This document shows, one piece after another, positions 23,878-45,300 of a stretch of DNA of 64,000 nt. The notes below the pieces were generated by a model. It saw only the letters and a program-made list of their open reading frames with translations. It did no database searches and was not told where the DNA came from. Position 1 is the first letter of the stretch. Every line of letters begins with the position of its first letter. The position numbers were made by a program, and so were the translations under genes. This DNA comes from Pirellulales bacterium (lineage in GTDB: Bacteria > Planctomycetota > Planctomycetia > Pirellulales > JACPPG01), in the NCBI GenBank assembly GCA_036499395.1, contig DASYDW010000020.1, positions 8,610 through 72,609 on the forward strand. The letters run 5' to 3'.

Positions 23878-24756
23878 GTGAAATTCGGCAAGGTCGACAA
23901 TCCAAAGAAAATTGATTTTACAATCCCACGAGATCATCCAGATACCATGAAGGTACTGAAACGAGCCTCGAAAGCGAAGGCATTCAAGGTCTACGTCGGA
24001 TGTGCCAAGTGGAATAAGAAGGACCTCAAAGATCTCTATCCGAAGGGCGTGAAGGACGAACTCGCGTACTACTCGACGCAGTTCAATAGCATCGAACTGA
24101 ATGCCACATTTTATCGCTTATTTCCAGCAGCGACTTTCAAGAACTGGAATGCTACGGTGCCGGACGATTTCCGGTTCTTTCCCAAGCTCGAACAAACGAT
24201 CTCGCACTTTCGACGCTTGAAGAACGTCAAGCAACTCGTCAAACGCAACGTTACCAACATGTCGCATCTGCGGGAAAAGCTGGAGATGCCGTTCCTGCAG
24301 ATGCACAATAACTTTGGGCCGAAAGATTTCGAGCGTGTTGTGACGTTCGCCGAGAACTGGACACACGACGTTCCGCTGGCGATAGAGTTTCGCCATACCG
24401 ATTGGTACAACGATCCTGCCGTTTCAACCAAACTTTACGATTTGCTCGAGACACACGGCATTACGAATGTCCTCGTCGATACGGCGGGGCGTCGTGATCT
24501 GATGCATATGCGACTGACGACCCCGACGGCGTTCATACGCTGGGTAGGGGCGAACGATCCCAAATCGGATCGCGCCCGTCTCGATGATTGGATTGAGAGA
24601 ATCGCGAAATGGAAAAGGGCCGGATTGCAGAAGCTCTTTTTCTTCGTCCATCACAATTATGAAGTGGAATCTCCTGCACTCGCCGCGCACTTCATCAAGC
24701 GGCTCAACAAGAAGATCGGTGCCAGCCTGCCTGTCCCCAAGACTCTTAAGGCTTAG
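23878..24756 (+). CDS. DUF72 (UPF0759) family protein
   Basis: 292 aa, GTG start. YVGCAKWNKKDL...LAYYSTQFNSIELNATFYRLFPAATFKNW...VPDDFRFFPKLEQTISH. Visibly more AT- and Lys-rich than its neighbours. Confidence 0.8.
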   Translation: MKFGKVDNPKKIDFTIPRDHPDTMKVLKRASKAKAFKVYVGCAKWNKKDLKDLYPKGVKDELAYYSTQFNSIELNATFYRLFPAATFKNWNATVPDDFRFFPKLEQTISHFRRLKNVKQLVKRNVTNMSHLREKLEMPFLQMHNNFGPKDFERVVTFAENWTHDVPLAIEFRHTDWYNDPAVSTKLYDLLETHGITNVLVDTAGRRDLMHMRLTTPTAFIRWVGANDPKSDRARLDDWIERIAKWKRAGLQKLFFFVHHNYEVESPALAAHFIKRLNKKIGASLPVPKTLKA

Positions 24757-24861: not shown

Positions 24862-24876
24862 TGCGAGTTTTTCGCA
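24862..24876. promoter_or_regulatory. Palindrome site A: TGCGAG-TTT-TTCGCA (one mismatch to TGCGAA-N3-TTCGCA)
   Basis: Read directly. 72-84 nt upstream of the GH5 start (24948/24960). Confidence 0.45.
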
Positions 24877-24947
24877 TGTTTTGACGGCGATTGGCGACCC
24901 ATGTTTGAGCATCACGGCGATGGGTGACCATGGCCGTTCACCTCTGA

Positions 24948-26108
24948 TTGTACGCAACCATGAATAGCGCAAATCAACTCACGCGGCGCGAGTTCGTCGC
25001 GGCCGCCGGCTGTGCATCTCTGTGGGCGAGCGAGGCCATCGCGACTGGCAGCGATCGACCAGCCGTGGCCTTACCGTTGCGTTTGTGTGGCGGTGTTTCG
25101 CTGGCCGGCGCCGAGTTTGCCGCCGAAGGGGCCGGCTTTTCCAATCAGAATCCCGGCATTTATGGGCGCGATTATCAATATCCTCAACGGTCGACAATTG
25201 AGTATTTTGCCGCCCGCGGGCTGGGATTACTGCGCATTCCGTTTCGTTGGGAGCGACTACAACCACGGCTCTTTGCACCGCTTGCCTCCCCAGAGTTGGC
25301 GCGGATGCGCGAGGTCATCGATCGGGCTCGCGCATCCGACGCCGCCGTTGTGCTCGACTTGCACAACTACGGCCGCTATCGCTTGAAACAGGGGAATCAA
25401 GCGCGCACGGTGATCATCGACGAGCAAATCGACGGTACCGTGCCGGTACCGCGCGCCGCGTTTGCCGACGTCTGGCGGCGCCTGGCCGCTGAATTCGCTA
25501 GCGATGCTACGGTCATGGGACTCGGCTTGATGAACGAGCCGCACGACATGAAATCTTCGGATTGGAAGGCTATTTCGCAGGCCGGCGTGGACGCCGTGCG
25601 TGAAGTGAATCGCACGGCCTGGGTCGTTGTCGCTGGCGATGGCTGGTCCAACGCCCATCGCTTCGAGGAAGTCAATGGTCCGCGTGCTTGGATCCGCGAT
25701 GCGGCGAACCGCGTGGTCTACGAAGCACACTGCTATTTCGATGCCGACGCCAGCGGCAAGTATCGCCACAGCTTCGTGGCCGAATTGCGCGACGATCCGC
25801 GACTTGCCGAGCGCGGCGTCGCGCGACTACGCGTCTTCCTCGATTGGTGCCGGCGGAATCAGGTCGCTGGTTTCCTTGGTGAGTTTGGCATACCGGGCGA
25901 TGACGCAGGCTGGCAAGAGGTACTGAGCCGCGCCCTCGCTTCGATCGAACACACGAAGGTTTCCGCATGTTACTGGGCCGCCGGCGAATGGTGGCACGAT
26001 TATCCCCTCTCGATTCAGCCGCGCAATGACATGCGCGATCCGGCTCCGCAGCAGCAAGTAGTGGCCCGGTTTCTAGCCAATCGCACAACTACGCCACGGC
26101 CGTTCTGA
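24948..26108 (+). CDS. Glycoside hydrolase family 5 endo-beta-1,4-glucanase-like, Tat/Sec exported
   Basis: 386 aa. TRREFVAAAGCASLWA signal. RIPFRWERLQP; LMNEPH (acid/base Glu); FLGEFG (nucleophile Glu). ATG 24960 is an alternative start. Confidence 0.8.
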   Translation: MYATMNSANQLTRREFVAAAGCASLWASEAIATGSDRPAVALPLRLCGGVSLAGAEFAAEGAGFSNQNPGIYGRDYQYPQRSTIEYFAARGLGLLRIPFRWERLQPRLFAPLASPELARMREVIDRARASDAAVVLDLHNYGRYRLKQGNQARTVIIDEQIDGTVPVPRAAFADVWRRLAAEFASDATVMGLGLMNEPHDMKSSDWKAISQAGVDAVREVNRTAWVVVAGDGWSNAHRFEEVNGPRAWIRDAANRVVYEAHCYFDADASGKYRHSFVAELRDDPRLAERGVARLRVFLDWCRRNQVAGFLGEFGIPGDDAGWQEVLSRALASIEHTKVSACYWAAGEWWHDYPLSIQPRNDMRDPAPQQQVVARFLANRTTTPRPF

Positions 26109-26112
26109 CGCC

Positions 26113-29100
26113 GTGCGCCACACTTCAACTTGGCGAATCATCATGGGCGAAGTATTTAACAAGCCGCTTGTGCGACGATCGGCAATGATCACCGCCACGG
26201 TGATGACCGTCGTGTATTTGACCTATCGCGGTCTGTACACGATGAACTTCTCGGGTCCTTACGCTACCGTCGCGTCGGTGGTGCTTTACGGCGCCGAGGC
26301 GTACGGCGGACTCTTGATGTTCCTGTTCTTCTTTCAGATTTGGGACATTTCGAATCCTGAACCGGCGCCGCCGCTGCCCGGCCGTACGGTCGATGTGATG
26401 ATTCCCACATACAACGAAGATCCCAGCCTGCTGCGCGGCACGATCGCGGCGTCGCTGCGCATCGCGTACCCGCATCGCACGCTGGTGCTGGACGACGGCA
26501 AGCGTCCGGAAGTGGCAGCGCTGTGCGAGGAACTCGGCGCCGAATATGTCACGCGCCCGTCGAATCTGCACGCCAAGGCCGGCAATCTTAATCACGCACT
26601 GGAAAAGACCGAGGGCGAATTCGTCGTCATCTTCGATGCCGATCACGTTGCCGAAACGCATTTTATCGACCGACTCATCGGTTACTTTGCCGACGACCGG
26701 TTAGGCTTCGTCCAAACTCCACACGCCTTCTACAACTTCGATGCCTACCAGGGAGTGCTCGACTACAAGCGCAAGGTGTACTGGGAAGAGGGGATGCTGT
26801 TCTACAACGTGACGCAGCCCGGCAAAAATCGCTGGAACGGCGTTACTTTTTGCGGTAGCGCCGCGATGTTCCGCCGCAAGTCGCTTGAAGAAGTCGGCCT
26901 GATCGCCACACAATCGATCACCGAGGACATGCATACCGGATTGCGGATGCATGCCAAGGGTTGGAAGAGCCTATTCGTCAACGAGCGGCTGATCGCCGCG
27001 ATTGCGGCCGATGACGTCACCAGCTTCAACACGCAGCGATTACGTTGGGGCGAAGGAAATCTCGGCATTTTTGCCTTCGACAATCCGATCACCATCCGTG
27101 GACTAACAATCCCCCAGCGGTTGTGCTATCTCGGCTCGATGCTCTCGTGGACCACCGGTGTACAGAAGTTGCTGATTTATGCAACACCGATCGCGATGTT
27201 GCTGACCGGCATCTCGCCGGTCCAACGCATGACGTGGCAATTGCTGGCCATCACAGTGCTTTATCTGATCGCGATCTGGTCAGCGGTAAAGGTCGCCTGC
27301 AACGGGTACGGCCGGTTGCTGGCCATCGAACTGACGCAAATGGCCTGCTATTGGACGCAGGTCCGTTCAACGTGGAGGGCGTTGTTCAAGCGCAAGCGGG
27401 CCACGTTCGTCGTGACGGCCAAACGCGGTCGTCAATCGAATGGCATTTTGAAGCACCTGGCGCCGCAAATCTATTTGATCGCGATTAGTGCATTCGCCGT
27501 TGCCTGGGCCGTGACAAAATATTGCCTGTCGATTTCGAACGATCCGGTGCAATTGGTTGTCGGTGGTGCGCTCGTGGGCGTGAACTGCTATATGGCCTGG
27601 CTGGTAGTTCAACGCGCCCTACGTTCGAAAGATCGCCGCACAGCCTGGCGACATCCGATTGCTCTGCACGTCGAGTATCGCGGCACCGATGAATTGGGCG
27701 TGGACTTCTCGGGACAATGCGTGACGCGCGACATTAACGAAGGGGGCGTGGGCCTGGTGGCTTACGAGCCGTTTCCGCCGTGTGGCGAAGTGGAAATGAC
27801 GATCCTTGCCGCGGGACGAGGCGTGACCTGCCGCGGCGCGATCCGGCATCGTCGCGAAGAGGTCAAGTTGCGCGCGGCACGCGGCGGCACGACGCAGGCA
27901 TACGCGTACGGCATCGAATTCATCGAGCCGACAAAGGAGCAGTTGGAAGTCCTGTGGTGGCTGGGAGCGCAATTCGCCGTCAGCTTTCATTACGAGCGGT
28001 TTCAGGGAGGGCAGTTTGGTCTCGGGTCTGCCGCGCCGCGACGATTGCCGACGCGCACGAATGAATTGCCCTTCGAGTTTCCCGTCCGCATTCATCATGG
28101 CGCCGAAGCGCCGGTTTACGGTGTCACGGAATGCTTGTCCACGGAATCGGTCGTCCTGCTGATGCCCGACGGTTTTCAGCCGACCGATCTGGTCCGCCTG
28201 GAATTTTCGACTCCGTTTGGCAATCTGGAAGCCTGGGCGGAAATCACCTGTGCCAAGTCGCGCACGATTGCTGGCGAACGCGTGCAGGAAACGCGTCTGG
28301 CGCTGCGCAAATTCTGTGGAGAGTCGCGTAGCCTGCTGCATTCCGTTCTAGGTCATCACGACTCGAAGGCTTTAGCCGGCGTGATCCGCTCGATACCGCG
28401 CCGCCGGGTGGTGAAAACAAAGCGGCCCATGGCCCTAGTCGTTGGCACAACCGGCGCCGCGGCAGCCGTGGCAGCCGGCTGCGTGCTCTATTTCCAGCAG
28501 GAGCAAGCGTTGCTTGCACGGGCTTACGCTGGCCGCAAGGTCTCGCCATTGCAGGTCGAGCAACTGTCACAGGCCGCGAATGCTCTGGAGTCTTTGGGCA
28601 CGACCGACGAAGAACGGCTGCTGCAGCTGCGAAAGGTAATGGTCGATCTCGACCGTGTCGAAGATGTCGCAAAGATCGACGACTACGTTTCAAGCATGAC
28701 TCCCAAGACACTTGAAGGCTTAGGCCTGAAGGCTGGCAGCTTGCAGCAGCTGCATCGCGAGGGCGAGGCCGAACTAGCGTTTGAAAAACTGCTGACGCAC
28801 CTCGACCAACTGCCTGACGAGGCGATGCAACGTGATGTGCTGCTGGCAGCGGCGCGGAACGCGGCTCAGCTCGAGAACTTTTCGGAATCGGTCGCGCGCT
28901 TCGAGCGATTGGAGAAATTAGCGCCGCTGGCGTGCGAGGCCAGGTTGGAGTTCGCCGGCGTGCTCTACCGTGACGGCCGCTTGGACGAAGCCGTCGCGAC
29001 ACTGCGCGGTGGGGATCAATCGACGAAGGAGCTGTTGTTCCTGGCGTCACTCTATTCGTCGGAAAAGCAGTTCGCACGGGCTGCGAACGTTTGCCGGGAA

Positions 29101-29733
29101 GCCCTTGATAAATCACCAGACGATTTGTCGGCCATGCGTGGCATAGCGGACAATTCATATTGGGGGCAGGATTGGCCCGCTGCCGCCGCAGCCTATCGAC
29201 AGGTGCTCAAGCACACGCCGCACGATGCCAAAGTGACAGAAACGCTTGCCGAGGTACTGCTCTCGGAACGAGAATTCGATGAAAGCCTCGCGCTGTATAG
29301 TCGTCTCATCACTCGCTTTCCTGAGCGTCGTGACTTGTGGAACGGATACTTGATCGCCGCGGCAAAATGCGAACGGCTCGATGGCCAGCAGCAAAAGCAG
29401 CTAATGGCGATCTACGATCAACGCTCCCAAAATGATGACAACAGGTTTCTTACAAACCTGCTGAATGCCGTCGCCAAACACGGTAGTCGGCAGGAAGCCA
29501 TACCGCTGATGCAATTCCTGGTGAACCGCGACCCACAAGATGCCGAGCTCCGTTTGCGGCTGGCCGACGGTCTGCACCAGGCCAAGCAATTCAAGGCCGC
29601 GGACATTCACTACCGATGGCTGTTGGCCCACGCTTCACCGCAGTCTTTGCCAAGCGAGCCAGCCTCACGCGTGGGGCGAGCGATGGGTAACCTCACGCGT
29701 TCGCCGATGTCGAAAACGGCGGCCAACCGCTAA
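26113..29733 (+). CDS. Cellulose-synthase-like processive GT2 glycosyltransferase fused to PilZ domain(s), an extra TM helix and a C-terminal TPR domain
   Basis: 1,206 aa. GT2 motifs: VMIPTYNEDP, LVLDDGKRPE, VIFDADHV, FVQTPHAF, TFCGSAAMFRR, ITEDMHTGLRMHAKGWKS, QRLRWGEGN (QxxRW). PilZ: RRTAWRH...DINEGGVGL, followed by a second PilZ-like segment. TM helix MALVVGTTGAAAAVAAGCVLYF, then about 400 aa of TPR-like repeats. ATG 26143 (MGEVFNK) is an alternative start. Confidence 0.85.
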   Translation: MRHTSTWRIIMGEVFNKPLVRRSAMITATVMTVVYLTYRGLYTMNFSGPYATVASVVLYGAEAYGGLLMFLFFFQIWDISNPEPAPPLPGRTVDVMIPTYNEDPSLLRGTIAASLRIAYPHRTLVLDDGKRPEVAALCEELGAEYVTRPSNLHAKAGNLNHALEKTEGEFVVIFDADHVAETHFIDRLIGYFADDRLGFVQTPHAFYNFDAYQGVLDYKRKVYWEEGMLFYNVTQPGKNRWNGVTFCGSAAMFRRKSLEEVGLIATQSITEDMHTGLRMHAKGWKSLFVNERLIAAIAADDVTSFNTQRLRWGEGNLGIFAFDNPITIRGLTIPQRLCYLGSMLSWTTGVQKLLIYATPIAMLLTGISPVQRMTWQLLAITVLYLIAIWSAVKVACNGYGRLLAIELTQMACYWTQVRSTWRALFKRKRATFVVTAKRGRQSNGILKHLAPQIYLIAISAFAVAWAVTKYCLSISNDPVQLVVGGALVGVNCYMAWLVVQRALRSKDRRTAWRHPIALHVEYRGTDELGVDFSGQCVTRDINEGGVGLVAYEPFPPCGEVEMTILAAGRGVTCRGAIRHRREEVKLRAARGGTTQAYAYGIEFIEPTKEQLEVLWWLGAQFAVSFHYERFQGGQFGLGSAAPRRLPTRTNELPFEFPVRIHHGAEAPVYGVTECLSTESVVLLMPDGFQPTDLVRLEFSTPFGNLEAWAEITCAKSRTIAGERVQETRLALRKFCGESRSLLHSVLGHHDSKALAGVIRSIPRRRVVKTKRPMALVVGTTGAAAAVAAGCVLYFQQEQALLARAYAGRKVSPLQVEQLSQAANALESLGTTDEERLLQLRKVMVDLDRVEDVAKIDDYVSSMTPKTLEGLGLKAGSLQQLHREGEAELAFEKLLTHLDQLPDEAMQRDVLLAAARNAAQLENFSESVARFERLEKLAPLACEARLEFAGVLYRDGRLDEAVATLRGGDQSTKELLFLASLYSSEKQFARAANVCREALDKSPDDLSAMRGIADNSYWGQDWPAAAAAYRQVLKHTPHDAKVTETLAEVLLSEREFDESLALYSRLITRFPERRDLWNGYLIAAAKCERLDGQQQKQLMAIYDQRSQNDDNRFLTNLLNAVAKHGSRQEAIPLMQFLVNRDPQDAELRLRLADGLHQAKQFKAADIHYRWLLAHASPQSLPSEPASRVGRAMGNLTRSPMSKTAANR

Positions 29734-29741
29734 CGGCGAAA

Positions 29742-32700
29742 CTACGGAATCCGAAAGACTGCGTAAGTTGCGACGCCGACGGCGTTATAGATCTCGTTCG
29801 CGGACCAGGTGAGGTTGCCGTCGGTCATCCAACTGACCCAGGGGGAGAAGTCATGCTGCCAGCGCCATTTCGAAAGAAAAAACCCGTCGCCGTTCGAGTC
29901 GACCGCGCCGCCAACGAATAGCGTGTACGAACGCTCGTTGCCCCCTTTAAACGTGTCACAGCTTAGCCATTGCTTCCACTCTAGCCCCGACGTCACGAAC
30001 GAATAGCCCGACGGTGACCAATAAGGGAACTGCGCGCCTACCAAGGAGTTTGGGTTCGGGCCGAAGATCGTCTGGTGGGCAAAAGAATAGAACGTGTAGT
30101 CGATGATGCCGCGTAGCTGCTTGCGCCCCTGCATGATCGTATGGGCCGAGTTGACATTAAACCAGTTGACCGAGTTGTGGTCCGAAAACGCCGCGACACG
30201 ATAGAAACCGCTCAGCGTCCATAGTCGCAATGGACGAAAAAGCGCATCGAATTGCACGCCACCCCAGTAGATGTCTTGCCGTATCGCCTCGCCGTTGGCG
30301 TAATAGTTCTTCAGAAAACCTGAGGCTGTGATCGTGCCGGCGTCGTTGTTGATCAGGTCGATGCCGGTATTGAACGTGGGGCGCGTTTTGATGCCGTATT
30401 GGTACTGCTCGACGGCCAGGTCCAGATAGATCGTCGAGTCGAGGTTGTACTTTTCCTGCCAATGCATGAACGGCACCTCGCCGACGTCGGGGCGATCGTC
30501 GGTCGGCTCGAGCACTCGCTCGCGGTAGCCCCACTCGAAGTACTCGTTTTCGTCTCCGAGCGGCTGCCGCTCGGAAAGCGAGTAATTCTGCCAGGTGATA
30601 TTTGCTAGCCCTTGACGTCCATGCTGGTACTGAAAGTCGAAGGATGGAATCACTTTGGGACGCAATTCCATCTCGTTGCGCGTGAGCGCCGTCATCGCGT
30701 CTGTGTGGCAAGGATTGACGTCCAATAGTTGCTGATAGGTTTGAATCGCGCACTGCGTGCGGTTGATCGCCGAATAGCTTTGCGCCAGATCGAACAGAGC
30801 CGCCTCGTTCGTCGGCTCCATCTCGAGCAGGCCCTTATACAGGGGAATGGCCTGCCGAAACTTCCAGCCACGCAGATACTTGGCGTTTAGCTCAGTGCTT
30901 AACAGAGCTGCAGGGGGGGCGCCGGTTGGCGATTCTAGTGTATCGGACCCCACGAGTGCGCCGACGCCGAAACCACCGGCTGCGGGATCCGTTTCTGGGC
31001 CGGGTAAATCACCCTGTTGTTGCGTTTGCTGGGCCGCCAGGTAGAAATTGCCCGAACGCTCGATCCCCTTCCAGCCTTCAACCATGCGTGCCGTTTCGCG
31101 GACGAGGTTGACATCCTGCGGCATGAACTTCAGCAACGTCTTATACTCGGCCAGCGCATGTTCGTATTCCAAACGTTTCTTCAATGTGCGCGCCACGCCC
31201 AACCGGGCGCGAATGTTCGTAGGTGATATGGCCACGGCCGGCTGAAAGAATGTCATCGCCGAGACGCATGCCGCCTGACAGCGTTCGAATTTGTGGAAGA
31301 TCTTTGGGAAAGTGTGGCGACAGTTGGGCGTGCCGCAACTGCAGTCGCAGAGCAGCGCCGCTTCGCCGCGCCGATTGAGCAGGCTCAGGTTCGCCGGCGC
31401 GACTTTCAAGGCGTCGTCGAGCACGGCCGCCGCAGAGCGACAGTCGCAATACGACAGGGCCCGATCCGCGAATCCGGCGCCCCAGCTTGCCGGCGGCGCC
31501 AAGGGCGACGGGCCTAGCCCGAGCGCCTCGCGCGCCAATTGTGGCTGTTTGAGCGTCGTTGCCGAGCGGTACAGGCCGTAGGCAATTTCGGGAAGCGCCG
31601 CGTTATGGTCGGCAGCCAGTGCGCGGAACGTCTCGGCCGCTTCGCCATCGCGCCCCTGTTCGAGAAAGATGTAGCCGAGCTGGCTTAAGAGGGCCACGTG
31701 TTCGCGTGGCGTTGCGTCCTTCAGTCCCTCGGTCGCCACCTGCAAGGCCGTGGGGCAATCATCGGACTTGATGAGCGTTTCGATCAACAGGATTCGGGCC
31801 GCCACGTCGGTTGGTTGTTGCTCGAGCAGCTCCTCCAACTCCTGCCGCGCGGCGTCAAATAGGCGTCGCCGCAGATAATTGCCGGCCAGCAGGCAGCGAA
31901 TCTCGCGACGCATTTCTTCGTCCGTCGCTGAGCACTCTTGCAAAGCCGCTTGAAACAACTCCTCGGCAATTTGCACCTGGCTCGAGGCTTGATAGGCATT
32001 CCCCAGCAAAATCATCGCCTGCACGTCATGCGGGTCTTCGACGAGACGCCGCTTGCCGATGCCGATGGCCTCGGAGTAGTCTCCGACCACGGTATGATAA
32101 TCCGCGAGTACCCCGAGAAAATCCTTGGTATCACGATCGCCCGAGAACGATCCCAGTAGTTGATGCGCCACATCGACTTCGTAGAGACGTAAATGCGTGC
32201 GAATCAGCAGTTGGGTCGCAGTTGCATGCGTCGGGTCTTGACCATGGATTTGTTGGGCCACGGCGCGCGCCTCGGGAAAAGCCTGCTCGCGATACAATTG
32301 CTCTGCCAACTTGAGCCAGGCACCACGATCGCTCGATGGCCGCGCGGCCGCCCCGCCAATCAGTTCCAAAGCTTCCAACCGCCGATTCGCGCGGACGTAC
32401 GCTTGCACCAAAGCAATCGCCAGGCCTTCGTCGTCGCGATGAACCTCATAAAGAGGTTGCAGCAGCGAAATCGCTTCCGCGGCGTGGTTCATGTCCACGA
32501 GCAGCAGCGCCATCAAACGCCGCTCGTCGATCGTCATATCCGTGGCATGCCGCAAGTAATCCTCGTATACCTTTTGGGCATCGGACTGCCGATGCTCGAG
32601 CAGGTACGATCGGGCCAGCATGACCGCGGCTTGCACGTCATAACGCGGATCTACCAGCAATCGGCGGAATTGCTCGCGCGACACGTCGTAATGTTTCAGT

Positions 32701-33707
32701 TGCAGCAGCAGGTCCGCCAGCAGCATTCGATACGTGCCGACCGCCGGTTGCTCCGCGATCAAACGTTCGAGTTGAGTTTGCGCCGCAGCGAACTGCCGCT
32801 GCTGAAGCAGTAATCCTGCGTATTCGTAGCGGGCTGCGTGATCGTCGGGTTGCAAACGCAAGTATTCGACAAATCGCGTTAGCGCTTCGGGCAGATTGCC
32901 CAGCGCGACCGAGTTGCGCGCGGCCCGCAAATGAACCTCGGCGGCAGGCGAGGGCTGGAAATTCTTCTCCGGAGCGGGAAGCTCAAGCGGAGGATCGATA
33001 AGCTGCGGCCCTCCGCCGCGTTTGTCATCGAACGGCAATTCGTCATCGGCAGGATACGGAGGCACCAGGCTTTCGGCCGTCCCCTCCATGGCGGACGGCG
33101 CGGAAATGCTTGGACCCGCGGCCGGCATTTGCGCTGCTGTCAGGCGTGGCATGCCGGCGAATAGAAAATCGCCAGGCTTTCCGGCCGCGGCGGAGGGGGG
33201 CAAACGAATCTGCAACTGGTTCGGCGCGGCGCCCCGTACGACGAGCGATTTCTCTTGCGACGTTACATGATGGGCCATATCTCGAATCTCGACTCGGGCA
33301 ATCAATTTGGCGGCATCGTGCTGCGACCAGACTACGATTCCTTCGAGTCCGCCGTTGGTCAACGACGTGCGAGTTTCTTGCGGGGGACAAGGGGTGCGCG
33401 AGCCGTCAGCCGCTTCGAGCCAACCCCAGCACTTCAGGCTCGGTACGTCCAGGTCGGAATCAACCGCGCGAAAAGTGAGCACCACGCGCGCGTCGGCCTG
33501 TTCGCGCACCTCGAGGCTTAACTGCGGAGATGTGCCGTTGACGGATGTGTCACGGGGCGTCGGTCCGTCAGCGGCAGAGATTTGACACAAGCCGAAGACA
33601 ATACACAGCGGCCAGACGACGCGCACGGCACCGCTCGCAATCGCTCTCGCGGCGAAAGTGGCAGCCCTCCGATGGCTGGAACAATGCATATTGCGGCCCG
33701 GGCGCAA
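29742..33707 (-). CDS. BcsC/PgaA-like exopolysaccharide export protein: signal peptide, long TPR array, C-terminal beta-barrel-like domain
   Basis: 1,321 aa. Numerous TPR-like repeats (e.g. ALTRFVEYLRLQPDDHAARYEYAGLLLQQ). The last ~450 aa are rich in alternating aromatic/hydrophobic residues (FDFQYQHG...YWGGVQFDALFRP...VATYAVFRIP). Convergent with the synthase gene, with stops 8 nt apart. Confidence 0.7.
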   Translation of the reverse strand: MRPGRNMHCSSHRRAATFAARAIASGAVRVVWPLCIVFGLCQISAADGPTPRDTSVNGTSPQLSLEVREQADARVVLTFRAVDSDLDVPSLKCWGWLEAADGSRTPCPPQETRTSLTNGGLEGIVVWSQHDAAKLIARVEIRDMAHHVTSQEKSLVVRGAAPNQLQIRLPPSAAAGKPGDFLFAGMPRLTAAQMPAAGPSISAPSAMEGTAESLVPPYPADDELPFDDKRGGGPQLIDPPLELPAPEKNFQPSPAAEVHLRAARNSVALGNLPEALTRFVEYLRLQPDDHAARYEYAGLLLQQRQFAAAQTQLERLIAEQPAVGTYRMLLADLLLQLKHYDVSREQFRRLLVDPRYDVQAAVMLARSYLLEHRQSDAQKVYEDYLRHATDMTIDERRLMALLLVDMNHAAEAISLLQPLYEVHRDDEGLAIALVQAYVRANRRLEALELIGGAAARPSSDRGAWLKLAEQLYREQAFPEARAVAQQIHGQDPTHATATQLLIRTHLRLYEVDVAHQLLGSFSGDRDTKDFLGVLADYHTVVGDYSEAIGIGKRRLVEDPHDVQAMILLGNAYQASSQVQIAEELFQAALQECSATDEEMRREIRCLLAGNYLRRRLFDAARQELEELLEQQPTDVAARILLIETLIKSDDCPTALQVATEGLKDATPREHVALLSQLGYIFLEQGRDGEAAETFRALAADHNAALPEIAYGLYRSATTLKQPQLAREALGLGPSPLAPPASWGAGFADRALSYCDCRSAAAVLDDALKVAPANLSLLNRRGEAALLCDCSCGTPNCRHTFPKIFHKFERCQAACVSAMTFFQPAVAISPTNIRARLGVARTLKKRLEYEHALAEYKTLLKFMPQDVNLVRETARMVEGWKGIERSGNFYLAAQQTQQQGDLPGPETDPAAGGFGVGALVGSDTLESPTGAPPAALLSTELNAKYLRGWKFRQAIPLYKGLLEMEPTNEAALFDLAQSYSAINRTQCAIQTYQQLLDVNPCHTDAMTALTRNEMELRPKVIPSFDFQYQHGRQGLANITWQNYSLSERQPLGDENEYFEWGYRERVLEPTDDRPDVGEVPFMHWQEKYNLDSTIYLDLAVEQYQYGIKTRPTFNTGIDLINNDAGTITASGFLKNYYANGEAIRQDIYWGGVQFDALFRPLRLWTLSGFYRVAAFSDHNSVNWFNVNSAHTIMQGRKQLRGIIDYTFYSFAHQTIFGPNPNSLVGAQFPYWSPSGYSFVTSGLEWKQWLSCDTFKGGNERSYTLFVGGAVDSNGDGFFLSKWRWQHDFSPWVSWMTDGNLTWSANEIYNAVGVATYAVFRIP

Positions 33708-33959
33708 TAATTACCAGTCACGCCACGACGGACGCGCAGAGCGCGGCACTCGTGGCGAGAATGGCAGGGAAAAGTTAGATCAAGGTAGAGTCGGGGCGGA
33801 AGCTACAAGCGGCCGCGCGCGTGGTCAATATCACGTCACGTGTACGCTCACCCTCGTCGCGCAGCACGCTTCGTACATCGCATGCGACCGAAGTTGGCTG
33901 CGCATCGGACTCTGCGCGTTGCATCGCATCGCGATCAACGAGCTGCGCTGCGCGGGACG

Positions 33960-33974
33960 TGCGAATTATTCGCA
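33960..33974. promoter_or_regulatory. Palindrome site B: TGCGAA-TTA-TTCGCA (arms extend to CGTGCGAA/TTCGCACG)
   Basis: Read directly. About 250 nt upstream of the BcsC-like gene start, downstream of the PilZ gene stop. Confidence 0.5.
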
Positions 33975-34040
33975 CGACAAATATGCACGCGCGGCGTCCA
34001 CGCCGTGCGATGCATTACGCGGCAGCGTCGATCGCAAGGC

Positions 34041-34388
34041 TTACGCGTCCGCCAAGTCCACGAACGCGCCGCCGCTGATATACCACCCCTCGCCGAGAGG
34101 CTTGCACCACTGGATCTGCGCCCGCAGCAAGATGTCGGTGTCTTCGCTGCGGATACAAACCTCGACCTCTTCCAGCGGCAGTTTCTCGGGATGCAACAGT
34201 CCGATGCCGGACTGCGAGATCTCGCGGCTCATACCGGGATAGCGGGTATCGCCCACGCGAATGGATACCAGCCTGCAGAACGAGTAGCGCATCTCGATAC
34301 GTGTCTCGGTTTCGTAGCTGTCGCGTGCCTCACGCAGAAGGTCGTAAAGGACCGCGCCGGGCGTCAGGGGGCTGTCGATGACTGTCAT
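34041..34388 (-). CDS. Stand-alone PilZ-domain protein (candidate c-di-GMP receptor)
   Basis: MTVIDSPL...RIEMRYSF...SREISQSGIGLL...RAQIQWCKPLGEGWYISG fits the RxxxR...(D/N)xSxxG PilZ pattern. The track ORF extends to a TTG at 34490; ATG 34388 gives a typical ~115-aa PilZ protein. Confidence 0.7.
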   Translation of the reverse strand: MTVIDSPLTPGAVLYDLLREARDSYETETRIEMRYSFCRLVSIRVGDTRYPGMSREISQSGIGLLHPEKLPLEEVEVCIRSEDTDILLRAQIQWCKPLGEGWYISGGAFVDLADA

Positions 34389-34451
34389 TTTGTTCCCGAA
34401 CTCGAGTTGGTTTTGTGAAAACGCTTGCGCAAACCTAGGACATGGCTGCGA

Positions 34452-34466
34452 TGCGAATGTTTCGCA
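34452..34466. promoter_or_regulatory. Palindrome site C: TGCGAA-TGT-TTCGCA
   Basis: Read directly. 64 nt upstream of the PilZ ATG at 34388 (minus strand). Confidence 0.5.
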
Positions 34467-34933
34467 CTTTCGAGAACGACTGCCCCCCAATCAGACGCGG
34501 TGCCGGGGCAGGCGGGTAGCATACTCCGCTGGCTGTTGTATTTGCGGTCCGTCCGATTAGGCTGAGAAATAGCGAACAGTAAGGCCCACGGCATTTCCAG
34601 CTAAAAAGGCGGGCAACGTGTCAATGATTCGCCACAGCGCGCAGAGGCTACTCTCACAGGCGATCCGTGCCTGCGAGCAATGGATCCTGGGCAATTCGCA
34701 TCCGGCCCAGGCCGTCGAATCGCGGCCACCGGCCACGCTGGCTCGGGCGGTTCGTTCCCCGGGAGACGTTAGCCGAGAGTACGACGAGTACATTCGCGCC
34801 AATGTAGGCGCCACCAGGCGGTAGGCGCAAGTTTCTCGGTAACGCGGGGGCCTTTTCTGATTCGTCGGATTGGGCGGGAAATTGCCGGCCGCCGCGTTCG
34901 TCCTGGTGCCCATTTGCGGCACCGGCAATGATA

Positions 34934-34948
34934 TGCGAATATTTCGCA
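34934..34948. promoter_or_regulatory. Palindrome site D: TGCGAA-TAT-TTCGCA (arms extend to ATGCGAA/TTCGCAT)
   Basis: Read directly. About 300 nt upstream of the PAS kinase gene. Confidence 0.5.
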
Positions 34949-35048
34949 TCGCGAATCTCGATTGAGCCAAGGCGTAGCTTGTAGTAGTACTAGCGCCAGG
35001 GCGAAGAAGATTGTTCGCCCCCCAACGGCTCATCAGCGGGCCGGACGT

Positions 35049-35061
35049 TTCGCAATGCGAA
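35049..35061. promoter_or_regulatory. Related palindrome site E with inverted half-site order: TTCGCA-A-TGCGAA
   Basis: Read directly. About 180-200 nt upstream of the PAS kinase gene. Confidence 0.35.
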
Positions 35062-35240: not shown

Positions 35241-36863
35241 GTGGGCTGCGTCCCGGGAATGCAAATGTCGAAGAGCCAGTCATTGACACCATTGCTCGGC
35301 GCCTTACGAACGGACCAGCCTGAGAGAGATGGAATACCGTCGCCTTGGTCGCAGGGATCTCCCGAGCGTGCATCCGCGTACGAGGCCGCGTTCGAACATG
35401 CCGCCATTGGCATGGCACTGGTCGGGCTGAATGGAAAGTTGCTGAGTGCGAATCGCGCGCTTTGCCAGATCCTCGGTTACCAACGGGACGAATTGGTGTC
35501 CCTACGCTTCGACGCTAACTTGCATCCTCAAGATATTCCCTTTGATTTTGGCCTGATCAGCGAATTGCTCGCCGGCAAACGCGAGCACTTCCATATCGAA
35601 AAGCGATACGTGCATAAGCAGGGACACGCGCTATGGATCTTGCTGAGCGTGTCACTGGTCTATGATGACGCGCAGCAGCCTTGCTACTTCATCGCGCAGT
35701 TGCAGGACATAACCGATCGCCGGCGTGCCGAAGCGACGTTCCATGCCCTGCTGGAGTCGGCTCCTGACGCGATGATTATCGCGAATCGGCAGGGCAGAAT
35801 TGTACTCGTGAATGCACAGGCGCAGGCTTACTTTGGCTACCACGCCGACGAAATGCTAGGTCAGCCAGTCGAGATGCTGCTACCCGAGCGCTTTCGAGGC
35901 GAACATCCGGCACATCGCGACCGTTATTTCGCCAGCCCCCGCGTGCGCGGCATGGGCGTGGGAACGAAGCTGTACGCGCGGCGTAAGGACGGCGGCGAAG
36001 TTCCCGTCGAGATTAGTCTCAGCCTGATCGAGGTCGATGAGGTACCACATGTCTGCTGTGCGATTCGCGACTTGACGCAATGGAACCATGCCGATGAAAC
36101 GCATCGACGGCTTACGGCGGTCGAGCACCTGGCAAGTCATCGTAATGAACTAGCGCAGATGCTGCGACTGAACACCATGTCCGAGATGGCCGCGGGCATT
36201 GCCCACGAATTGAATCAGCCATTATCCGCGATAGCCAATTACGCCCGGGGTGCAGCGCGAAGAATGAACCGCGGCGTGGCCAAAACGGACGAGTTGATGC
36301 CCGTCATCGATTCCATTGCCGAAGAAGCGGTGCGCGCCTCGGAGATTATTCGCAGCGTCAAGCGATTCGTCAGAAAGCAAGAACCGAAACGGGTGCCTGT
36401 CGACGTCAACGAAGTCGTCGAGAGCGCGCTACGAATCATCGCCGGCCAGGCACATGAACGTGGGGTGGAAGTCGTCTTTGATGGCTCCGGACATCGGCTG
36501 CAGGTCATGGGAGACGCGATACAGATCGAACAGGTAATGGTTAACTTGCTGACTAACGCCCTCGACGCCCTGGACGACGTGACGCACGCCAAACTACTGC
36601 TGATCGAGGCCAACAGGACGGAGAAAGGGCAGGTCGAAGTGCGGGTCATCGACAATGGTTGCGGTCTGCCCACCCTGGATGGCGTGGATGTCTTCGAGGC
36701 TTTCATGACCACGAAGATCGACGGCTTGGGAATGGGGCTGGCCATCAGTCGCTCGCTGATCGAAGCCCACGGCGGCCAGCTCACCGCCGAGACGAACGAG
36801 TGCGGTGGGGCCACATTCCGATTTCAATTGTCTTGTGAAGATGGTGGCAAACATGACGACTGA
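35241..36863 (+). CDS. Cytoplasmic PAS-PAS sensor histidine kinase (FixL-like architecture)
   Basis: 540 aa with no TM helix. Two PAS-like segments: FEHAAIGMALVGLNGKLLSANRA and LLESAPDAMIIANRQGRIVLVNAQA. H-box AGIAHELNQPLSAIANY. ATPase N/G boxes: LLTNALDAL, IDNGCGLP, GLGMGLAISRSLIEAHGG. Confidence 0.85.
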   Translation: MGCVPGMQMSKSQSLTPLLGALRTDQPERDGIPSPWSQGSPERASAYEAAFEHAAIGMALVGLNGKLLSANRALCQILGYQRDELVSLRFDANLHPQDIPFDFGLISELLAGKREHFHIEKRYVHKQGHALWILLSVSLVYDDAQQPCYFIAQLQDITDRRRAEATFHALLESAPDAMIIANRQGRIVLVNAQAQAYFGYHADEMLGQPVEMLLPERFRGEHPAHRDRYFASPRVRGMGVGTKLYARRKDGGEVPVEISLSLIEVDEVPHVCCAIRDLTQWNHADETHRRLTAVEHLASHRNELAQMLRLNTMSEMAAGIAHELNQPLSAIANYARGAARRMNRGVAKTDELMPVIDSIAEEAVRASEIIRSVKRFVRKQEPKRVPVDVNEVVESALRIIAGQAHERGVEVVFDGSGHRLQVMGDAIQIEQVMVNLLTNALDALDDVTHAKLLLIEANRTEKGQVEVRVIDNGCGLPTLDGVDVFEAFMTTKIDGLGMGLAISRSLIEAHGGQLTAETNECGGATFRFQLSCEDGGKHDD

Positions 36864-37473
36864 CGCGGTCGTTTATCTCGTGGACGACGACCCCGCCGTC
36901 CTCAAGTCGTTGCATTGGTTGGTCGAGTCGGCCAGCCTCGCTGCCAAACCTCTGAACTCGGCCGCTTCGTTTTTGGAAGCGTACGATCCACGGCGACCAG
37001 GCTGCCTGATCCTCGACGTGCGCATGCCGCAGATGACCGGTTTGCAATTGCAGAGCCTCTTAAAGGAGCGCAACATCGAATTGCCGATCATTATCATGAC
37101 CGGCCACTCGGACGTGCCGACCTGCACCGAGTCCTTCCGCAATGGAGCCTTCGACTTCATCGAGAAGCCAGCCGACGACGAATTCCTGATCGCCCGCGTC
37201 CAGCAGGCCATTGCCACCGACATTGAGCGCCGTCAACAAGAGGTGCATAGGACGGAAATCAGCAAACGATTGGCGACCCTCACCCCGCGCGAGCGGGAAG
37301 TCATGGATGCGATTGTCAGCGGAAAATCGCAGAAGCGTATCGCCTCGGAACTGGGAATCAGTTTTCAAACGGCCGCCAAGCATCGGGCCAAGGTGCTGAC
37401 GAAGCTGCAGGTTGGCAACGACGTAGAGGTCGTCCGAGCGCTGCTCGTCAACGAGACGAACTCCGCAACCTGA
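36853..37473 (+). CDS. FixJ/NarL-family response regulator (REC + LuxR-type HTH)
   Basis: MTTDAVVYLVDDDPAV...CLILDVRMPQMTG...IIIMTGHSD...LTPREREVMDAIVSGKSQKRIASELGISFQTAAKHRAKVLTKL. Overlaps the kinase 3' end. In-frame alternatives lie at 36841 and 36805. Confidence 0.85.
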   Translation: MTTDAVVYLVDDDPAVLKSLHWLVESASLAAKPLNSAASFLEAYDPRRPGCLILDVRMPQMTGLQLQSLLKERNIELPIIIMTGHSDVPTCTESFRNGAFDFIEKPADDEFLIARVQQAIATDIERRQQEVHRTEISKRLATLTPREREVMDAIVSGKSQKRIASELGISFQTAAKHRAKVLTKLQVGNDVEVVRALLVNETNSAT

Positions 37474-41972: not shown

Positions 41973-42344
41973 ATGACTGTCAGGCTCGGGCGCGTGCAAT
42001 TGCGCATTATGCAGGTGCTCTGGAACCAGAGCCGTGCGACGGCGAAGGAAATTACCGACACCCTCAACGTCGATGAGCCAATCGCTCATAGCACGGTGCA
42101 GACGCTGCTGCGCGGTTTAGAGGTCAAGCAGGCCGTCGGCCATGACGTCGAGGGGCGAACCTTCATCTTCTTTCCTCTGGTGCGCGAAGGTCAGGTCGCC
42201 CGCAGTGTCACGCGCGAGTTGGTCGATCGCGTCTTCGGCGGCAGCGTCAGCGAAACGGTCGCCTATCTGCTTAAAAACGAAAAAGTTTCGCCTGAGGAAT
42301 TGAAGGAAATTCGTCGCCTGGTCAACGAACAGTCACGCAAATAA
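41973..42344 (+). CDS. BlaI/MecI/CopY-family winged-helix transcriptional repressor
   Basis: 123 aa. LGRVQLRIMQVLWNQSRATAKEITDTL...AHSTVQTLLRGLEVKQAV...SPEELKEIRRLV. 11 nt upstream of the M56 protease gene. Confidence 0.85.
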   Translation: MTVRLGRVQLRIMQVLWNQSRATAKEITDTLNVDEPIAHSTVQTLLRGLEVKQAVGHDVEGRTFIFFPLVREGQVARSVTRELVDRVFGGSVSETVAYLLKNEKVSPEELKEIRRLVNEQSRK

Positions 42345-42355
42345 GGGTCGCTGCG

Positions 42356-45300
42356 ATGATGCTTGCGTCCATGTGGATCGAGCTGCTCGAATCGGCCGCC
42401 ACAATCTGCGAGCTGGCCGGGCATTGGTTCGTACAATCCACACTGCTGATCGGTGTCGGTTTGCTTGCCGGACGGTGTTTCGCTAATCGCGGCGCCGCAT
42501 TTACATCGGTCATTTACCGCACGGCTCTCGTCGCGGCCGTGCTTTGTCCCCTCGCAACATGGCTGCTGATGCAATTTGGCCTGACGCTGGGCATCGCTTC
42601 GCTGCCCGCCTTGCGTGTGGCATCGATCCAACAGGTGGCCGTCTACCACCAGGCGGATCCAGTAAGCGTCGCGCAGTCGCCGCCGATTGAGCCCGGCAAT
42701 CCGTCTGAAACCTGGCCCTCGACAGCGCCGGATTTAGCGGGCTTGTCACGTACCGAGGATGAATCGCCTGATACAGAACGTCGCCCGACGACGGAGCAAG
42801 CTCAATCCTTTGGACTTTCACCCGAAAGCTCGCCATCGCCCGCACCGGGATCGATGCTCGAACCAACTCCGGCTGCCGTCCCGCCTATCGACACGCGACC
42901 CGCGGCCGAATCGGCCGACATGATTGTCGAAATGGTGCCAACATTGGTCATTAACCCGTCGATGGCCACGATCGTCGCTTCGGTTGCGCTTGTATGGCTT
43001 TTCGGCGCATTCCATTTGCTACTACGTCTGACTGCTGCCCACGTCGCCTTGTTGCGACTGCGTCGAGCAGCAGTGCCGGCAATCGCCGAGCAACAGCAGC
43101 TCTGTTGGGAACTCGCTGAAAAGATGGGCGTCTGGCCACCTGCCGTGCTGACGAGCCCCTTCGTACCGGGGCCGTGCCTGGCCGGCGTGCTGCACTCTAC
43201 GATCCTGCTGCCGGACGAACTACCTGACGTTCCGCTGGCGACGGTCTTCGTTCACGAGCTTGCGCACTTGCGGCGGCGCGATTGTTTTTGGAATGTCGCG
43301 CGTCAGGCGGTGTCGGCACTGTTATTCTTTCAGCCGCTCGTCTGGCGATTGTCGCGACGCATGGAAACCACGGCCGAAGAAGTGTGCGACGACTATGTCG
43401 TCCAGCACGGCGCGGACCGGACTGCCTATGCAGATATCCTGGTGAGTTTGGCCGAGCGCGCGTGGCTGCCGGCGTCGTCCGCCGTGGTGCCGCTGGTGAC
43501 GTTTCGTTCACTGTTGGGGCGGCGCGTGGCGCGGATTCTCGACGGCACGCGGCGGCTGTCACTTTCGGTCAGCTTGACCGCATTGGCGTTGATCGTCGGC
43601 GGCGGGCTGGCGGCGACCGTGGGTACCGGAGCATTGGGGCCGGCAGGAAGAGGGACTTCGTCTGAATCCACGAATGCCGAAGAGAGCATTCCGGCCCCTG
43701 AGACCGACGCCGAATCCGCGACCGCGCCCCTTAACGATGAGAATGCAGACGAAAAGAGTGTCGCGTCCGGCACGCCTCCCACGGCAGTCGCCGCCGTGCC
43801 CGACGCAAACCTAGTGCTGCACTATCGGGGGCGGGTGTTGGATCCTGACGGCAAGCCGCTGGCCGGGGCGGCGGTCTTCTTCACGTTCGACGATTGGGGG
43901 CGGCAGCTCGATCGCACCTCACGACGTATGGCGGCAACTGGCGCCGACGGCTGGTTCGATTTCCAAACCCGCCGCAGCGACTTCGAGCCTAATGTCGCGA
44001 CAAGCTGGCTTGCGCCCGGAGTCGTGATCACGGCCGACGGCTTTGGTTGCGCTCAGGCGGCGTCCCTGGCCTTCGAAACCACGGGCGAAGCGCGCAAGCG
44101 AATGTCAGATGTTGCGCGACGTCGGGTCGACGAGCAATTAGTCGAGCATGATCCGATCGTGCGATTGGTGCGCGACGACGCACCACTGACCGGAAGGTTA
44201 GTCTCGACCGAAGGTAAGCCCCTTGTCGGCGCACGCGTCGTCGCGAGGCGCGTCTACTACAATACCGAGGGAATCCTGGATGCTTGGGAGACGGGTGTCC
44301 GCCAGCCCAAGGCCGACGCGGATGCGCAGTATCGCGCCGTCCCGCGTGGCGGCTTTCCCAATGATATGGTATCGATTTTGCCAGCGGCTATTACGGATCG
44401 CGACGGACGTTTTACTCTGCATGGCGTGGGTCGCGAACGCTTGGCGGATATCGAAATCACGGGAGATGCGTTGGAAGCCACTCCATTGCACGTGCGCACG
44501 CGCAACGGAGATGCAGTTACGCTGCCGTATCGATGGGCGGCCACGCCGCGCGCTTTAGAACCGCGACAGGTTTATTTAGGAAATGATTTCCTGCAGGTTA
44601 TTCCCTACGCGCAGCCCGTTTCAGGGCGCGTGATTGATGCGCAAACGCGAAAGCCGATGGCCCAGGTCCTGGTCAGCGGTGGCAAGTTTGACCTTCGCCC
44701 GGGCGGAATTCAACCGCGCATCACGACGCAGACCGACGACCAAGGGCGTTACACGTTGCACGGCCTGATCGTCGGGCAGGAAGAGGTTTTGCACGTCACG
44801 CCGCCGGGCGGCGAGCCGTATGTACCGATCGGAGCCCGCGTCACCACGGCGCTCCAAAAGCCGGCGACGTGTGATTTTGCACTGCGACGCGGTGTCTGGC
44901 TGCGCGGCAAAGTCACTGAGAAGCAGTCCGGGCAACCGCTGGAGGGGGTCCTGACTTATCGCGCGTTCGCGAACAACCTCAGTTTGTCGCTGTATCCCGG
45001 ATTCATCTGGCTGAGCTCTGAACACCGATGCCACCCTGACGAAGCCGGCAATTATCAACTCGCGATTCCGCCGGGGCCGGGCGTTATTTCGTTTATGGCG
45101 ACCGATTACAAGCGCTTCCGCCGCGGCGCGGGAGTCGAAACGATCACGCGTCCGCCGCGCATGAGTCCTGGCAACCCGCCGACCTATGCCGCCGTGCCGA
45201 GCCTTTTTATGCCGGAAGACTGCACGATTCTCGCGCAGGTAAATCCCGCCGACGACGCAAAGAGCGTCGACGTAAACCTTCTGCCCGAGGCCGGCGCCAC

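Follow-up and report, generated by a model that had tools for sequence, protein, structure and literature searches.

The window, that is, the whole 64-kb stretch of DNA analyzed here, carries a cellulose-synthase-like cassette composed of a GH5 glycoside hydrolase gene, a GT2-PilZ-TPR synthase gene, a TPR/BcsC-like gene, a small PilZ gene, a small open reading frame (orfX) and the genes of a FixL-like kinase and a FixJ-like regulator (Table 1). The TPR/BcsC-like gene is syntenic in all lineages, and Pfam detects no porin domain in its product. In the PDB, FixL chimeras match the core of the kinase (E 1e-51), and its second PAS domain aligns with the heme-PAS domain of FixL, with the proximal His kept. 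The best PDB matches of the regulator are FixJ (5xso, E 2e-42) and StyR (1yio). orfX, which was missing from the gene map of a preliminary description of this DNA, lies between two of the palindromes considered below (34452 and 34934); it is open in nine lineages, encodes 61-77 aa outside the window, has no Pfam match and has only one or two relatives in databases.

Table 1. Genes and sequence elements of the cassette (window positions)
Feature	Position	Strand	Basis or remark
Predicted operator copy, GH5/synthase side	24862..24876	.	TGCGAGTTTTTCGCA, 1 mismatch
Conserved block GACCCATGTTTG	24897..24908	+	20 nt downstream of the GH5-side palindrome
GH5 glycoside hydrolase gene	24961..26108	+	Pfam Cellulase PF00150, E 1e-38
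Synthase gene, GT2 (cellulose-synthase-like) + PilZ + C-terminal TPR	26113..29733	+	Pfam
TPR-rich 1300-aa protein, BcsC-like by architecture	29742..33707	-	Pfam TPR families only
Promoter-like block TTGACC-N17-TAGCTT, upstream of BcsC-like gene	33800..33828	-	Conserved in 7 lineages
Predicted operator copy, between PilZ stop and BcsC-like gene	33960..33974	.	Arms over 33958-33976
Stand-alone PilZ-domain protein, 115 aa, acidic	34041..34388	-	Pfam PF07238; RxxxR and xSxxG motifs
-10-like TAGGTT	34433..34438	-	Exactly 14 nt past the PilZ-side palindrome
Predicted operator copy, divergent PilZ/small-ORF region	34452..34466	.	Exact copy
orfX, conserved small ORF, 68 aa	34618..34824	+	Open frame, C-terminal LEYDxY[VI]RxN
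Predicted operator copy, between orfX and kinase/regulator operon	34934..34948	.	Exact copy
Swapped half-sites TTCGCAATGCGAA (TTCGCA-A-TGCGAA)	35049..35061	.	Intact in the window, not conserved
FixL-like sensor kinase, PAS-PAS-HisKA-HATPase	35241..36863	+	Pfam
FixJ/NarL-type response regulator, REC + GerE HTH	36853..37473	+	Pfam; candidate binder

A palindrome conserved at four intergenic positions

The exact palindrome TGCGAANNNTTCGCA (TGCGAA-N3-TTCGCA, 15 bases) occurs three times in the window (33960-33974, 34452-34466 and 34934-34948), with arms that reach 8 bp at 33958-33976 and 7 bp at 34933-34949; dinucleotide-preserving shuffles of the window contain a mean of 0.01 exact copies, and none of 100 reached three. 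The one-mismatch copy TGCGAGTTTTTCGCA (24862-24876) is the only other match in the window with at most one mismatch. Four two-mismatch matches (7751, 10203, 20836 and 47344) bring the total at up to two mismatches to 8, against 5.6 expected, and are not themselves above chance. The preliminary description, which had reported three perfect copies that chance could not explain, their arm lengths, the one-mismatch copy and no further complete one, was thus accurate on each of these points.

All four sites lie in non-coding DNA. The 24862 site is located approximately 85 nt upstream of the GH5 ATG (24961), with its center approximately 92 nt from it; the 33960 site comes only 67 nt after the PilZ stop and approximately 255-270 nt ahead of the start of the TPR/BcsC-like gene; the 34452 site stands 64 nt from the PilZ ATG, as had been described (71 nt from center to ATG); and the 34934 site follows orfX at 110 nt and precedes the kinase start by approximately 300 nt. 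This placement agrees with the earlier proposal that the motif joins the two-component operon to the GH5/synthase operon and to the genes for the BcsC-like and PilZ proteins. Five non-coding sites had been claimed, of which these four stand. The fifth, the swapped form at 35049, is degenerate even in L006, a locus 97% related, and occurs in none of the other orthologous loci. For this reason it is not counted as a site; it is probably non-functional. The kinase operon, said to have two sites upstream, therefore has one.

In about ten lineages of uncultured planctomycetes, the palindrome recurs at the same four places of the cassette. The question, raised at the outset, of its conservation in orthologous loci thus has a positive answer. 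Across the orthologous loci examined (approximately 194 kb; PilZ proteins 54-97% identical to that of the window), nine further loci contain 22 perfect copies, in addition to copies with one or two mismatches, at these four intergenic positions. The position of the 24862 site is occupied by a perfect copy in L001 (19598), a two-mismatch copy in L002 (12571) and a three-mismatch remnant in L005. Orthologous copies of the 33960 site are present in 10 of 10 lineages. Those of the 34452 site are centered 70-73 nt from the PilZ ATG in 8 of 10, and L001 and L003 carry a 100-nt insertion. The sequence at 34934, ATGCGAAATATTCGCA, is invariant in six aligned lineages, with further copies in L138, L139, L141 and L144. 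In each of the ten lineages the PilZ gene has a palindrome on either side; in L004/L005 the PilZ-side site has one mismatch and the BcsC-side site is perfect. Column identity in the intergenic alignments is only 36-49% on average, so that the palindromes are kept amid divergent flanks. Thirty aligned sites give the consensus vTGCGAAwnwTTCGCAb, and their symmetrized logo reaches 2 bits at the T, G, G and A of each half-site and 1.8 bits at the C, and falls to at most 0.5 bit, about zero, beyond the core. Recurrence at the same four cassette positions therefore marks the palindrome as a probable DNA binding site.

The GACCCATGTTTG block, aligned in the window, L001, L002 (twice) and L005, is possibly a core-promoter element. 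The block upstream of the BcsC-like gene fails a strict sigma-70 scan. Additionally, TAnnnT is found at the same 14-nt distance from the PilZ-side site in all sequences read (window, L006, L001, L002, L008, L003, L004 and L144), and TAGGTT may represent the -10 element of the PilZ promoter; an operator 14 nt before it would therefore cover the -35 region. This geometry suggests either repression or activation that substitutes for -35 recognition.

DNA operator, dispersed repeat or RNA element

A dispersed repeat (REP/MITE-like) was considered and rejected, given that similarity between palindrome copies stops at 15-19 nt and that 1.37 Mb of related or control loci, like the remaining window sequence, contain no copies. 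Specifically, approximately 1.37 Mb of control loci contain no perfect copy, 722 kb around PilZ paralogues of Pirellulales genomes contain no match with up to one mismatch, and 645 kb around generic FixJ-like regulators contain one single-mismatch match. The remainder of the window and the DNA flanking the orthologous loci yielded no further sites. The view of the palindrome as locus-specific thus holds within these loci, its scope being the 64-kb window and approximately 130 kb of orthologous loci.

It is highly improbable that the palindromes function in RNA, whether as hairpins, as terminators or as processing sites. The 24862 site does score as terminator-like, with a T-rich tail, and the 33960 site lies just past the PilZ stop and can form a hairpin of -10.6 kcal/mol (z-score -3.7). 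However, the hairpins are weak overall (-6 to -10.6 kcal/mol), a T-tract is missing at three of the four sites, and the 34452 site, which lies in a divergent promoter region, has a minimum-energy fold other than the palindrome hairpin. Intrinsic termination was rejected on these grounds, the stems also being short and A/T-centered, and a structured RNA element was rejected because none of eight variant sites shows a compensatory change, each variant breaking the pairing, and Rfam returns no match. Taken together, site conservation, information limited to the core, the lack of compensatory changes and control loci devoid of perfect copies indicate that the palindrome is a predicted protein-bound DNA operator, and not an RNA hairpin, a terminator or a dispersed repeat.

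Candidate binding proteins

We consider it reasonably probable that this operator belongs to a dimeric transcription factor that coordinates the cassette, with the FixJ/NarL-type regulator as the likeliest binder. This regulator is the only transcription factor or DNA-binding protein in the conserved cassette, and one palindrome always lies upstream of its own operon. Its orthologues in the same cassette are 63-84% identical and have an identical recognition helix; every regulator of 63-100% identity is found in this cassette and has the helix ISFQTAAKHRAKVL. L002 encodes an additional GerE protein, a paralogue with an identical recognition helix, preceded by a duplicated perfect operator. Inverted-repeat operators are known for NarL/FixJ (GerE-HTH) proteins, including the 7-2-7 sites of NarL, the ComA box (TTGCGG-N4-CCGCAA) and the palindrome bound by StyR. 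The 6-3-6 layout found here, 9 bp from center to center, is compatible with a GerE-HTH dimer. In the mechanism that we propose, the adjacent FixL-like PAS kinase, possibly a heme-based O2 sensor, would phosphorylate the regulator, which would then dimerize, each GerE-type helix-turn-helix reading one TGCGA half-site at the 9-bp spacing of NarL 7-2-7 sites. The dimer would coordinately control the GH5/synthase operon, the TPR/BcsC-like gene, the PilZ receptor and the kinase/regulator operon.

A different, rather unlikely arrangement is that the operator is real and its binder is encoded elsewhere, e.g., a c-di-GMP-responsive or global factor that counts the FixLJ-like system among its targets. 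In all ten lineages the motif accompanies the PilZ and BcsC-like genes, whereas the REC-GerE regulator adjoins the sites in only nine. In L004/L005, an ECF sigma factor and a Ser/Thr kinase stand beside PilZ in place of orfX, kinase and regulator, and the regulator would therefore need to be encoded elsewhere in that genome. Also in favor of a distant binder, the motif is unlike known FixJ boxes, and L142, whose regulator is 56% identical, has the same recognition helix and lies in a non-polysaccharide context, yielded no full site, only a two-mismatch half-site 47 nt upstream of the kinase gene. Against it, the genes that flank the cassette vary by lineage and include no other conserved transcription factor, the GerE paralogue of L002 with its own operator copy points to the GerE HTH type, and the palindrome geometry suits GerE-type dimers.

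Two other cassette products can be weighed as binders. The small, positively charged orfX product (charge counted from the sequence) always lies between two of the sites, co-occurs with them in nine lineages and falls outside known families that would give it another role. It is nevertheless very unlikely to bind the palindrome: it has no recognizable DNA-binding fold, its AlphaFold model is of low confidence (pLDDT 66; two long helices and a disordered linker), it is missing from L004/L005, like the regulator, and it evolves quickly (38% identity between the window and L001) next to an invariant operator. The stand-alone PilZ protein, whose gene has sites on both sides in 10 of 10 lineages, could be a c-di-GMP-dependent factor with a precedent in MrkH, a PilZ-domain transcription factor. 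This is extremely unlikely for a single, strongly acidic 115-aa PilZ domain (by our count, about 20 Asp/Glu and 13 Lys/Arg) that lacks an additional DNA-binding domain.

Comparison with known systems and significance

Like NarL/FixJ-family operators, the palindrome is a short perfect inverted repeat (15-19 bp), shares with NarL 7-2-7 sites the 9-bp distance between half-site centers, occurs several times among the promoters of a small regulon that includes the regulator's own operon, and has a REC-GerE candidate binder whose closest solved relatives are FixJ and StyR. Unlike in those operators, its sequence is new and its protein binding predicted; a full-text literature search for both half-sites returned nothing relevant. 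FixJ recognition helices are of the PRTVEVHRANV type, whereas the helix here reads QTAAKHRAKV. FixJ has been reported to bind imperfect palindromes of 16-18 bp, the alphaproteobacterial FixJ box being TAAGTAATTTCCCTTA, an 18-bp imperfect palindrome, with SELEX classes GTAGTTTCCC and GTAMGTAG (PMC4999443). The operator resembles neither TAAGTAATTTCCCTTA nor GTAMGTAG, the latter being absent from the window, and the alphaproteobacterial box was rejected as its counterpart on account of this unrelated sequence. The likeness to FixL/FixJ thus lies in the kinase core with its heme-PAS-aligned domain (heme binding here is predicted), in the FixJ-like regulator and in a palindromic operator of similar length. 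Unlike FixLJ, which targets fixK and nifA, the candidate targets here are a polysaccharide synthase cassette and a PilZ protein.

As in bcs operons, where c-di-GMP acts through the PilZ domain of BcsA, a GT2-PilZ synthase, a glycoside hydrolase and a large TPR protein are clustered. In contrast to bcs, the hydrolase is GH5 and not GH8, the synthase has fused TPR repeats, Pfam detects neither BcsB nor the BcsC porin domain, and an additional stand-alone PilZ gene and a dedicated two-component system share the operator. The FixLJ system of Burkholderia, which controls biofilm and motility, has been linked to biofilm-related phenotypes and c-di-GMP genes, although exopolysaccharide genes were not differentially expressed (PMC8406202). 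The present locus shows a similar association of a FixLJ-type system, but here the operator lies directly at the synthase, export and PilZ genes.

To our knowledge, gene regulation in Planctomycetota is mostly uncharted, and experimentally usable regulator-operator pairs are scarce. The cassette offers a compact regulon of four operators and one candidate FixLJ-like system, with a polysaccharide synthase, an export protein and a c-di-GMP receptor as its output, and the invariant operator provides a precise sequence tag for finding the cassette in metagenomes. Tentatively, a heme-based O2 sensor of the FixL/FixJ type may have been rewired through a new operator to control directly a cellulose-like exopolysaccharide synthase, its export component and a stand-alone c-di-GMP receptor. 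If so, the locus would represent an "oxygen to matrix" module complete in itself, and its regulator and operator would be among the first such pairs to be defined in Planctomycetota; were the kinase a heme O2 sensor, oxygen availability would be tied to matrix production in soil and sediment planctomycetes.

Copies of the palindrome and their gene context

In agreement with the preliminary description, the window contains three exact matches to TGCGAANNNTTCGCA, at 33960, 34452 and 34934, the first with arms of 8 bp and the last with arms of 7 bp. Dinucleotide-preserving shuffles of the window give a mean of 0.01 by chance, and none of 100 reaches three. The one-mismatch copy described at 24862 (TGCGAGTTTTTCGCA) was recovered by a mismatch-tolerant scan as the only one in the window, and the four two-mismatch matches are at chance level (eight matches in total vs. 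5.6 expected). A longer repeat around the palindrome was ruled out, since similarity stops at 16-19 nt. A fifth copy had been proposed in the swapped form TTCGCA-A-TGCGAA at 35049; this sequence is present, but it is already degenerate in L006, a relative's cassette locus whose PilZ protein is 97% identical, and is missing in the other loci, so it was discarded as an operator copy.

All four remaining sites are non-coding, as had been claimed, whereas their assigned gene contexts needed amendment. The site at 33960 is upstream of the BcsC-like TPR gene and at the same time 67 nt past the stop of PilZ, which runs in the same direction. A conserved small ORF, orfX, separates the sites at 34452 and 34934: the former falls between the divergent PilZ and orfX genes, the latter 110 nt past orfX and about 300 nt ahead of the kinase gene. 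The orfX frame is open in nine lineages (61-77 aa; three divergent lineages have exactly 61 codons), always flanked by PilZ on one side and the kinase/regulator operon on the other, and has a C-terminal LEYDxY[VI]RxN motif. Its product matches no Pfam family and has only one or two relatives among the billions of proteins searched; it is basic and predicted, with low model confidence, to form two helices.

Genes of the cassette and other features by position (window genes other than orfX from Pfam and ORF reading; identities to the window are from tblastn local matches, the lowest stemming from the frameshifted assembly of locus L003)
Feature	Sequence	Position	Strand	Identity
DUF72	window	23878-24756	+	
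GH5 hydrolase	window	24961-26108	+	
GT2/cellulose-synthase-like, PilZ, TPR synthase	window	26113-29733	+	36-90%
1300-aa TPR protein (BcsC-like), convergent with synthase	window	29742-33707	-	40-89%
TTGACC-N17-TAGCTT block	window	33800-33828	-	
GCCAACTTC block	window	33890-33898		
115-aa PilZ protein	window	34041-34388	-	54-97%
orfX	window	34618-34824	+	
orfX	L001	9402-9587	-	
orfX	L008	3453-3638	-	
orfX	L003	6228-6413	-	
orfX	L144	9255-9488	+	
PAS-PAS-HisKA-HATPase kinase	window	35241-36863	+	
REC-GerE regulator, start overlapping kinase stop	window	36853-37473	+	56-84%
BlaI/MecI-type repressor gene and 4721-aa ORF	window	41973-56521		
IS-type integrase (rve) remnant	window	6656-7483	-	
Ser/Thr kinase-FGE-sulfatase, ECF sigma factor, second REC-GerE regulator	window	8046-12096	-	
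PilZ leader insertion	L001	~9880-9985		
PilZ leader insertion	L003	~6690-6795		
ECF sigma factor and Ser/Thr kinase-WD40	L004	2792-6710		
Extra GerE-type gene	L002	12786-13290	-	

Among solved structures, the kinase core is nearest to FixL (E 1e-51), and its second PAS domain (residues ~160-280) aligns with the haem-PAS domains of FixL and DosP, with the proximal histidine kept; it is a possible haem-based sensor of gases. The nearest solved structures to the regulator are FixJ (5xso, E 2e-42) and StyR. The window encodes further regulators (an ECF sigma factor, a second REC-GerE protein, a TetR protein and a BlaI-like repressor), none of which accompanies the cassette in other lineages. A 4721-aa ORF comes immediately after the BlaI/MecI-type gene (123 aa), and the integrase remnant has the Ser/Thr kinase-FGE-sulfatase, ECF sigma factor and second REC-GerE genes as neighbours; no operator copy lies at any gene of this latter group.

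Conservation and locus specificity

Database searches gave only eight relatives of the small PilZ protein and, for the regulator, a few close ones (63-84% identity). On the relatives' contigs the cassette recurs in about ten lineages; assemblies carrying it include ERZ25039454 (contig_14659), GCA_037975565.1 and JGI 3300063276 (Ga0556621_000244). Gene content, together with the nearest PilZ relatives in Pirellulales and Planctomycetaceae MAGs, assigns the window to Planctomycetota. Conservation in orthologous loci, on which the preliminary description had staked its regulon, is seen throughout: every cassette locus carries the palindrome at constant positions, namely in the interval from the PilZ stop to the BcsC-like gene, in the PilZ upstream region, and between PilZ and the kinase/regulator operon. 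Where the contig covers the region upstream of GH5, the site is perfect in L001 and reduced to remnants with 2-3 mismatches in L002 and L005. In the most divergent lineage (L004 and L005; runs SRR23095611 and SRR23095613), orfX, kinase and regulator are replaced by a pair of genes divergent from PilZ, for an ECF sigma factor and for a Ser/Thr kinase-WD40 protein, and operator copies are retained. The idea that sites roughly 500 bp apart are helically phased, as for looping, was dropped because spacings range from 443 to 639 bp across lineages without consistent phase.

Two controls address locus specificity. The first, 49 loci (722 kb) of Pirellulales genomes carrying PilZ paralogues outside the cassette (GTDB genome scan with the PilZ alignment), holds no match even when one mismatch is allowed. 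The second, 80 loci (645 kb) around generic FixJ-like regulators of at most 50% identity (metagenome scan with the regulator alignment), holds a single one-mismatch match, and the TAAKHR helix occurs in none of these regulators. All matches with up to one mismatch in the orthologous loci fall in cassette intergenic regions. These results argue against a repeat dispersed across the phylum, and within the window and the orthologous loci the claimed locus specificity holds; at the level of sequence comparison, its interpretation as a putative operator defining a regulon is strongly supported.

Sequence footprint and promoter-like elements

Mean column identity in the intergenic alignments is only 36-49%, and the palindrome columns are invariant. 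In a logo symmetrised over 30 sites, the T, both G and the A of each half-site carry 2.0 bits, the C 1.8 bits and the sixth base 1.35 bits, with a W-N-W spacer, a "not T" preference immediately outside the core and at most 0.3 bit further out (consensus vTGCGAAwnwTTCGCAb). Such palindromes could in principle act at the RNA level. However, compensatory Watson-Crick changes are absent from all eight variant sites, the hairpins have little stability (-6 to -10.6 kcal/mol; one site's fold is not even the palindrome hairpin), and an Rfam search of the window and four loci returned no match, making an RNA-level role highly improbable. Sequence rather than structure is conserved, an indication that the DNA site is bound by a protein.

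On the PilZ side, the operator centre lies 70-73 nt from the ATG in eight of ten lineages. L001 and L003 share an insertion of ~100 nt between the promoter-like block and the ATG, which matches no Rfam family and may represent either a small mobile insertion or an element of the leader. In all eight lineages read (window, L006, L001, L002, L008, L003, L004 and L144), a TAnnnT element (TAGGTT, TACGTT, TATCTT, TATTGT and similar) lies exactly 14 nt past the palindrome. If this is a -10 element, the operator would be centred near -33/-34 and cover the -35 region, a position that suggests either repression or activation substituting for -35 recognition. On the GH5 side, a conserved GACCCATGYTTG block lies 20 nt past the operator. 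Between the BcsC-like gene and its operator, seven lineages keep two blocks: a promoter-like TTGACC-N17-TAGCTT, ~125 nt downstream of the operator, and an invariant GCCAACTTC. A strict sigma-70 scan of the intergenic regions called no promoter, so all these promoter assignments are tentative and derive from conservation.

The candidate binder and its relation to known systems

The cassette's own regulator is a plausible binder, and we lean towards it. It is the sole DNA-binding protein within the conserved cassette; the PilZ protein seems a most improbable binder, and the orfX product hardly a likelier one. All placeable regulators of 63-100% identity lie in the cassette and have an identical HTH segment, ISFQTAAKHRAKVL, an invariance that parallels that of the operator, and the regulator's own operon is always preceded by one operator. 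Additionally, in L002 (a frameshifted assembly with operator sites at 13375 and 12571) a further GerE-type gene is inserted upstream of GH5; its recognition helix, IQTAAKHRAKVL, is that of the cassette regulator, and a duplicated perfect operator and the GACCCATGTTTG block precede it.

Some observations count against the regulator and would favour another, unlinked factor. L004 and L005 keep two sites, yet have the sigma factor and Ser/Thr kinase in place of orfX, kinase and regulator; L142, a 56%-identical regulator with an identical helix in a non-polysaccharide context, has a half-site only; and the motif is unlike published FixJ boxes. Set against these, the regulator's standing as the only conserved DNA-binding protein and the operator copy at the L002 gene with the same helix leave an unlinked factor unlikely.

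Geometry also speaks for the regulator: the 6-3-6 inverted repeat places half-site centres 9 bp apart, as do the 7-2-7 sites of NarL, and FixJ is reported to bind imperfect palindromes of 16-18 bp (PMC4999443). By sequence the palindrome falls outside the alphaproteobacterial FixJ box family, and the two half-sites, searched in full-text literature, led to no account of it. The operator sequence would be new and its kind familiar, a palindromic dimer site for a candidate binder of the NarL/FixJ type, and the regulon would be small and self-contained, including the regulator's own operon. FixLJ of Burkholderia affects biofilm, whereas the genes differentially expressed under it do not include those for exopolysaccharide (PMC8406202); it would be unusual for a FixLJ-like system, possibly one that senses oxygen, to control a cellulose-synthase-like cassette and a c-di-GMP receptor directly. 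Though not a new type of system, it would represent a well-delimited regulatory module that lends itself to testing, in a phylum that has received little study.
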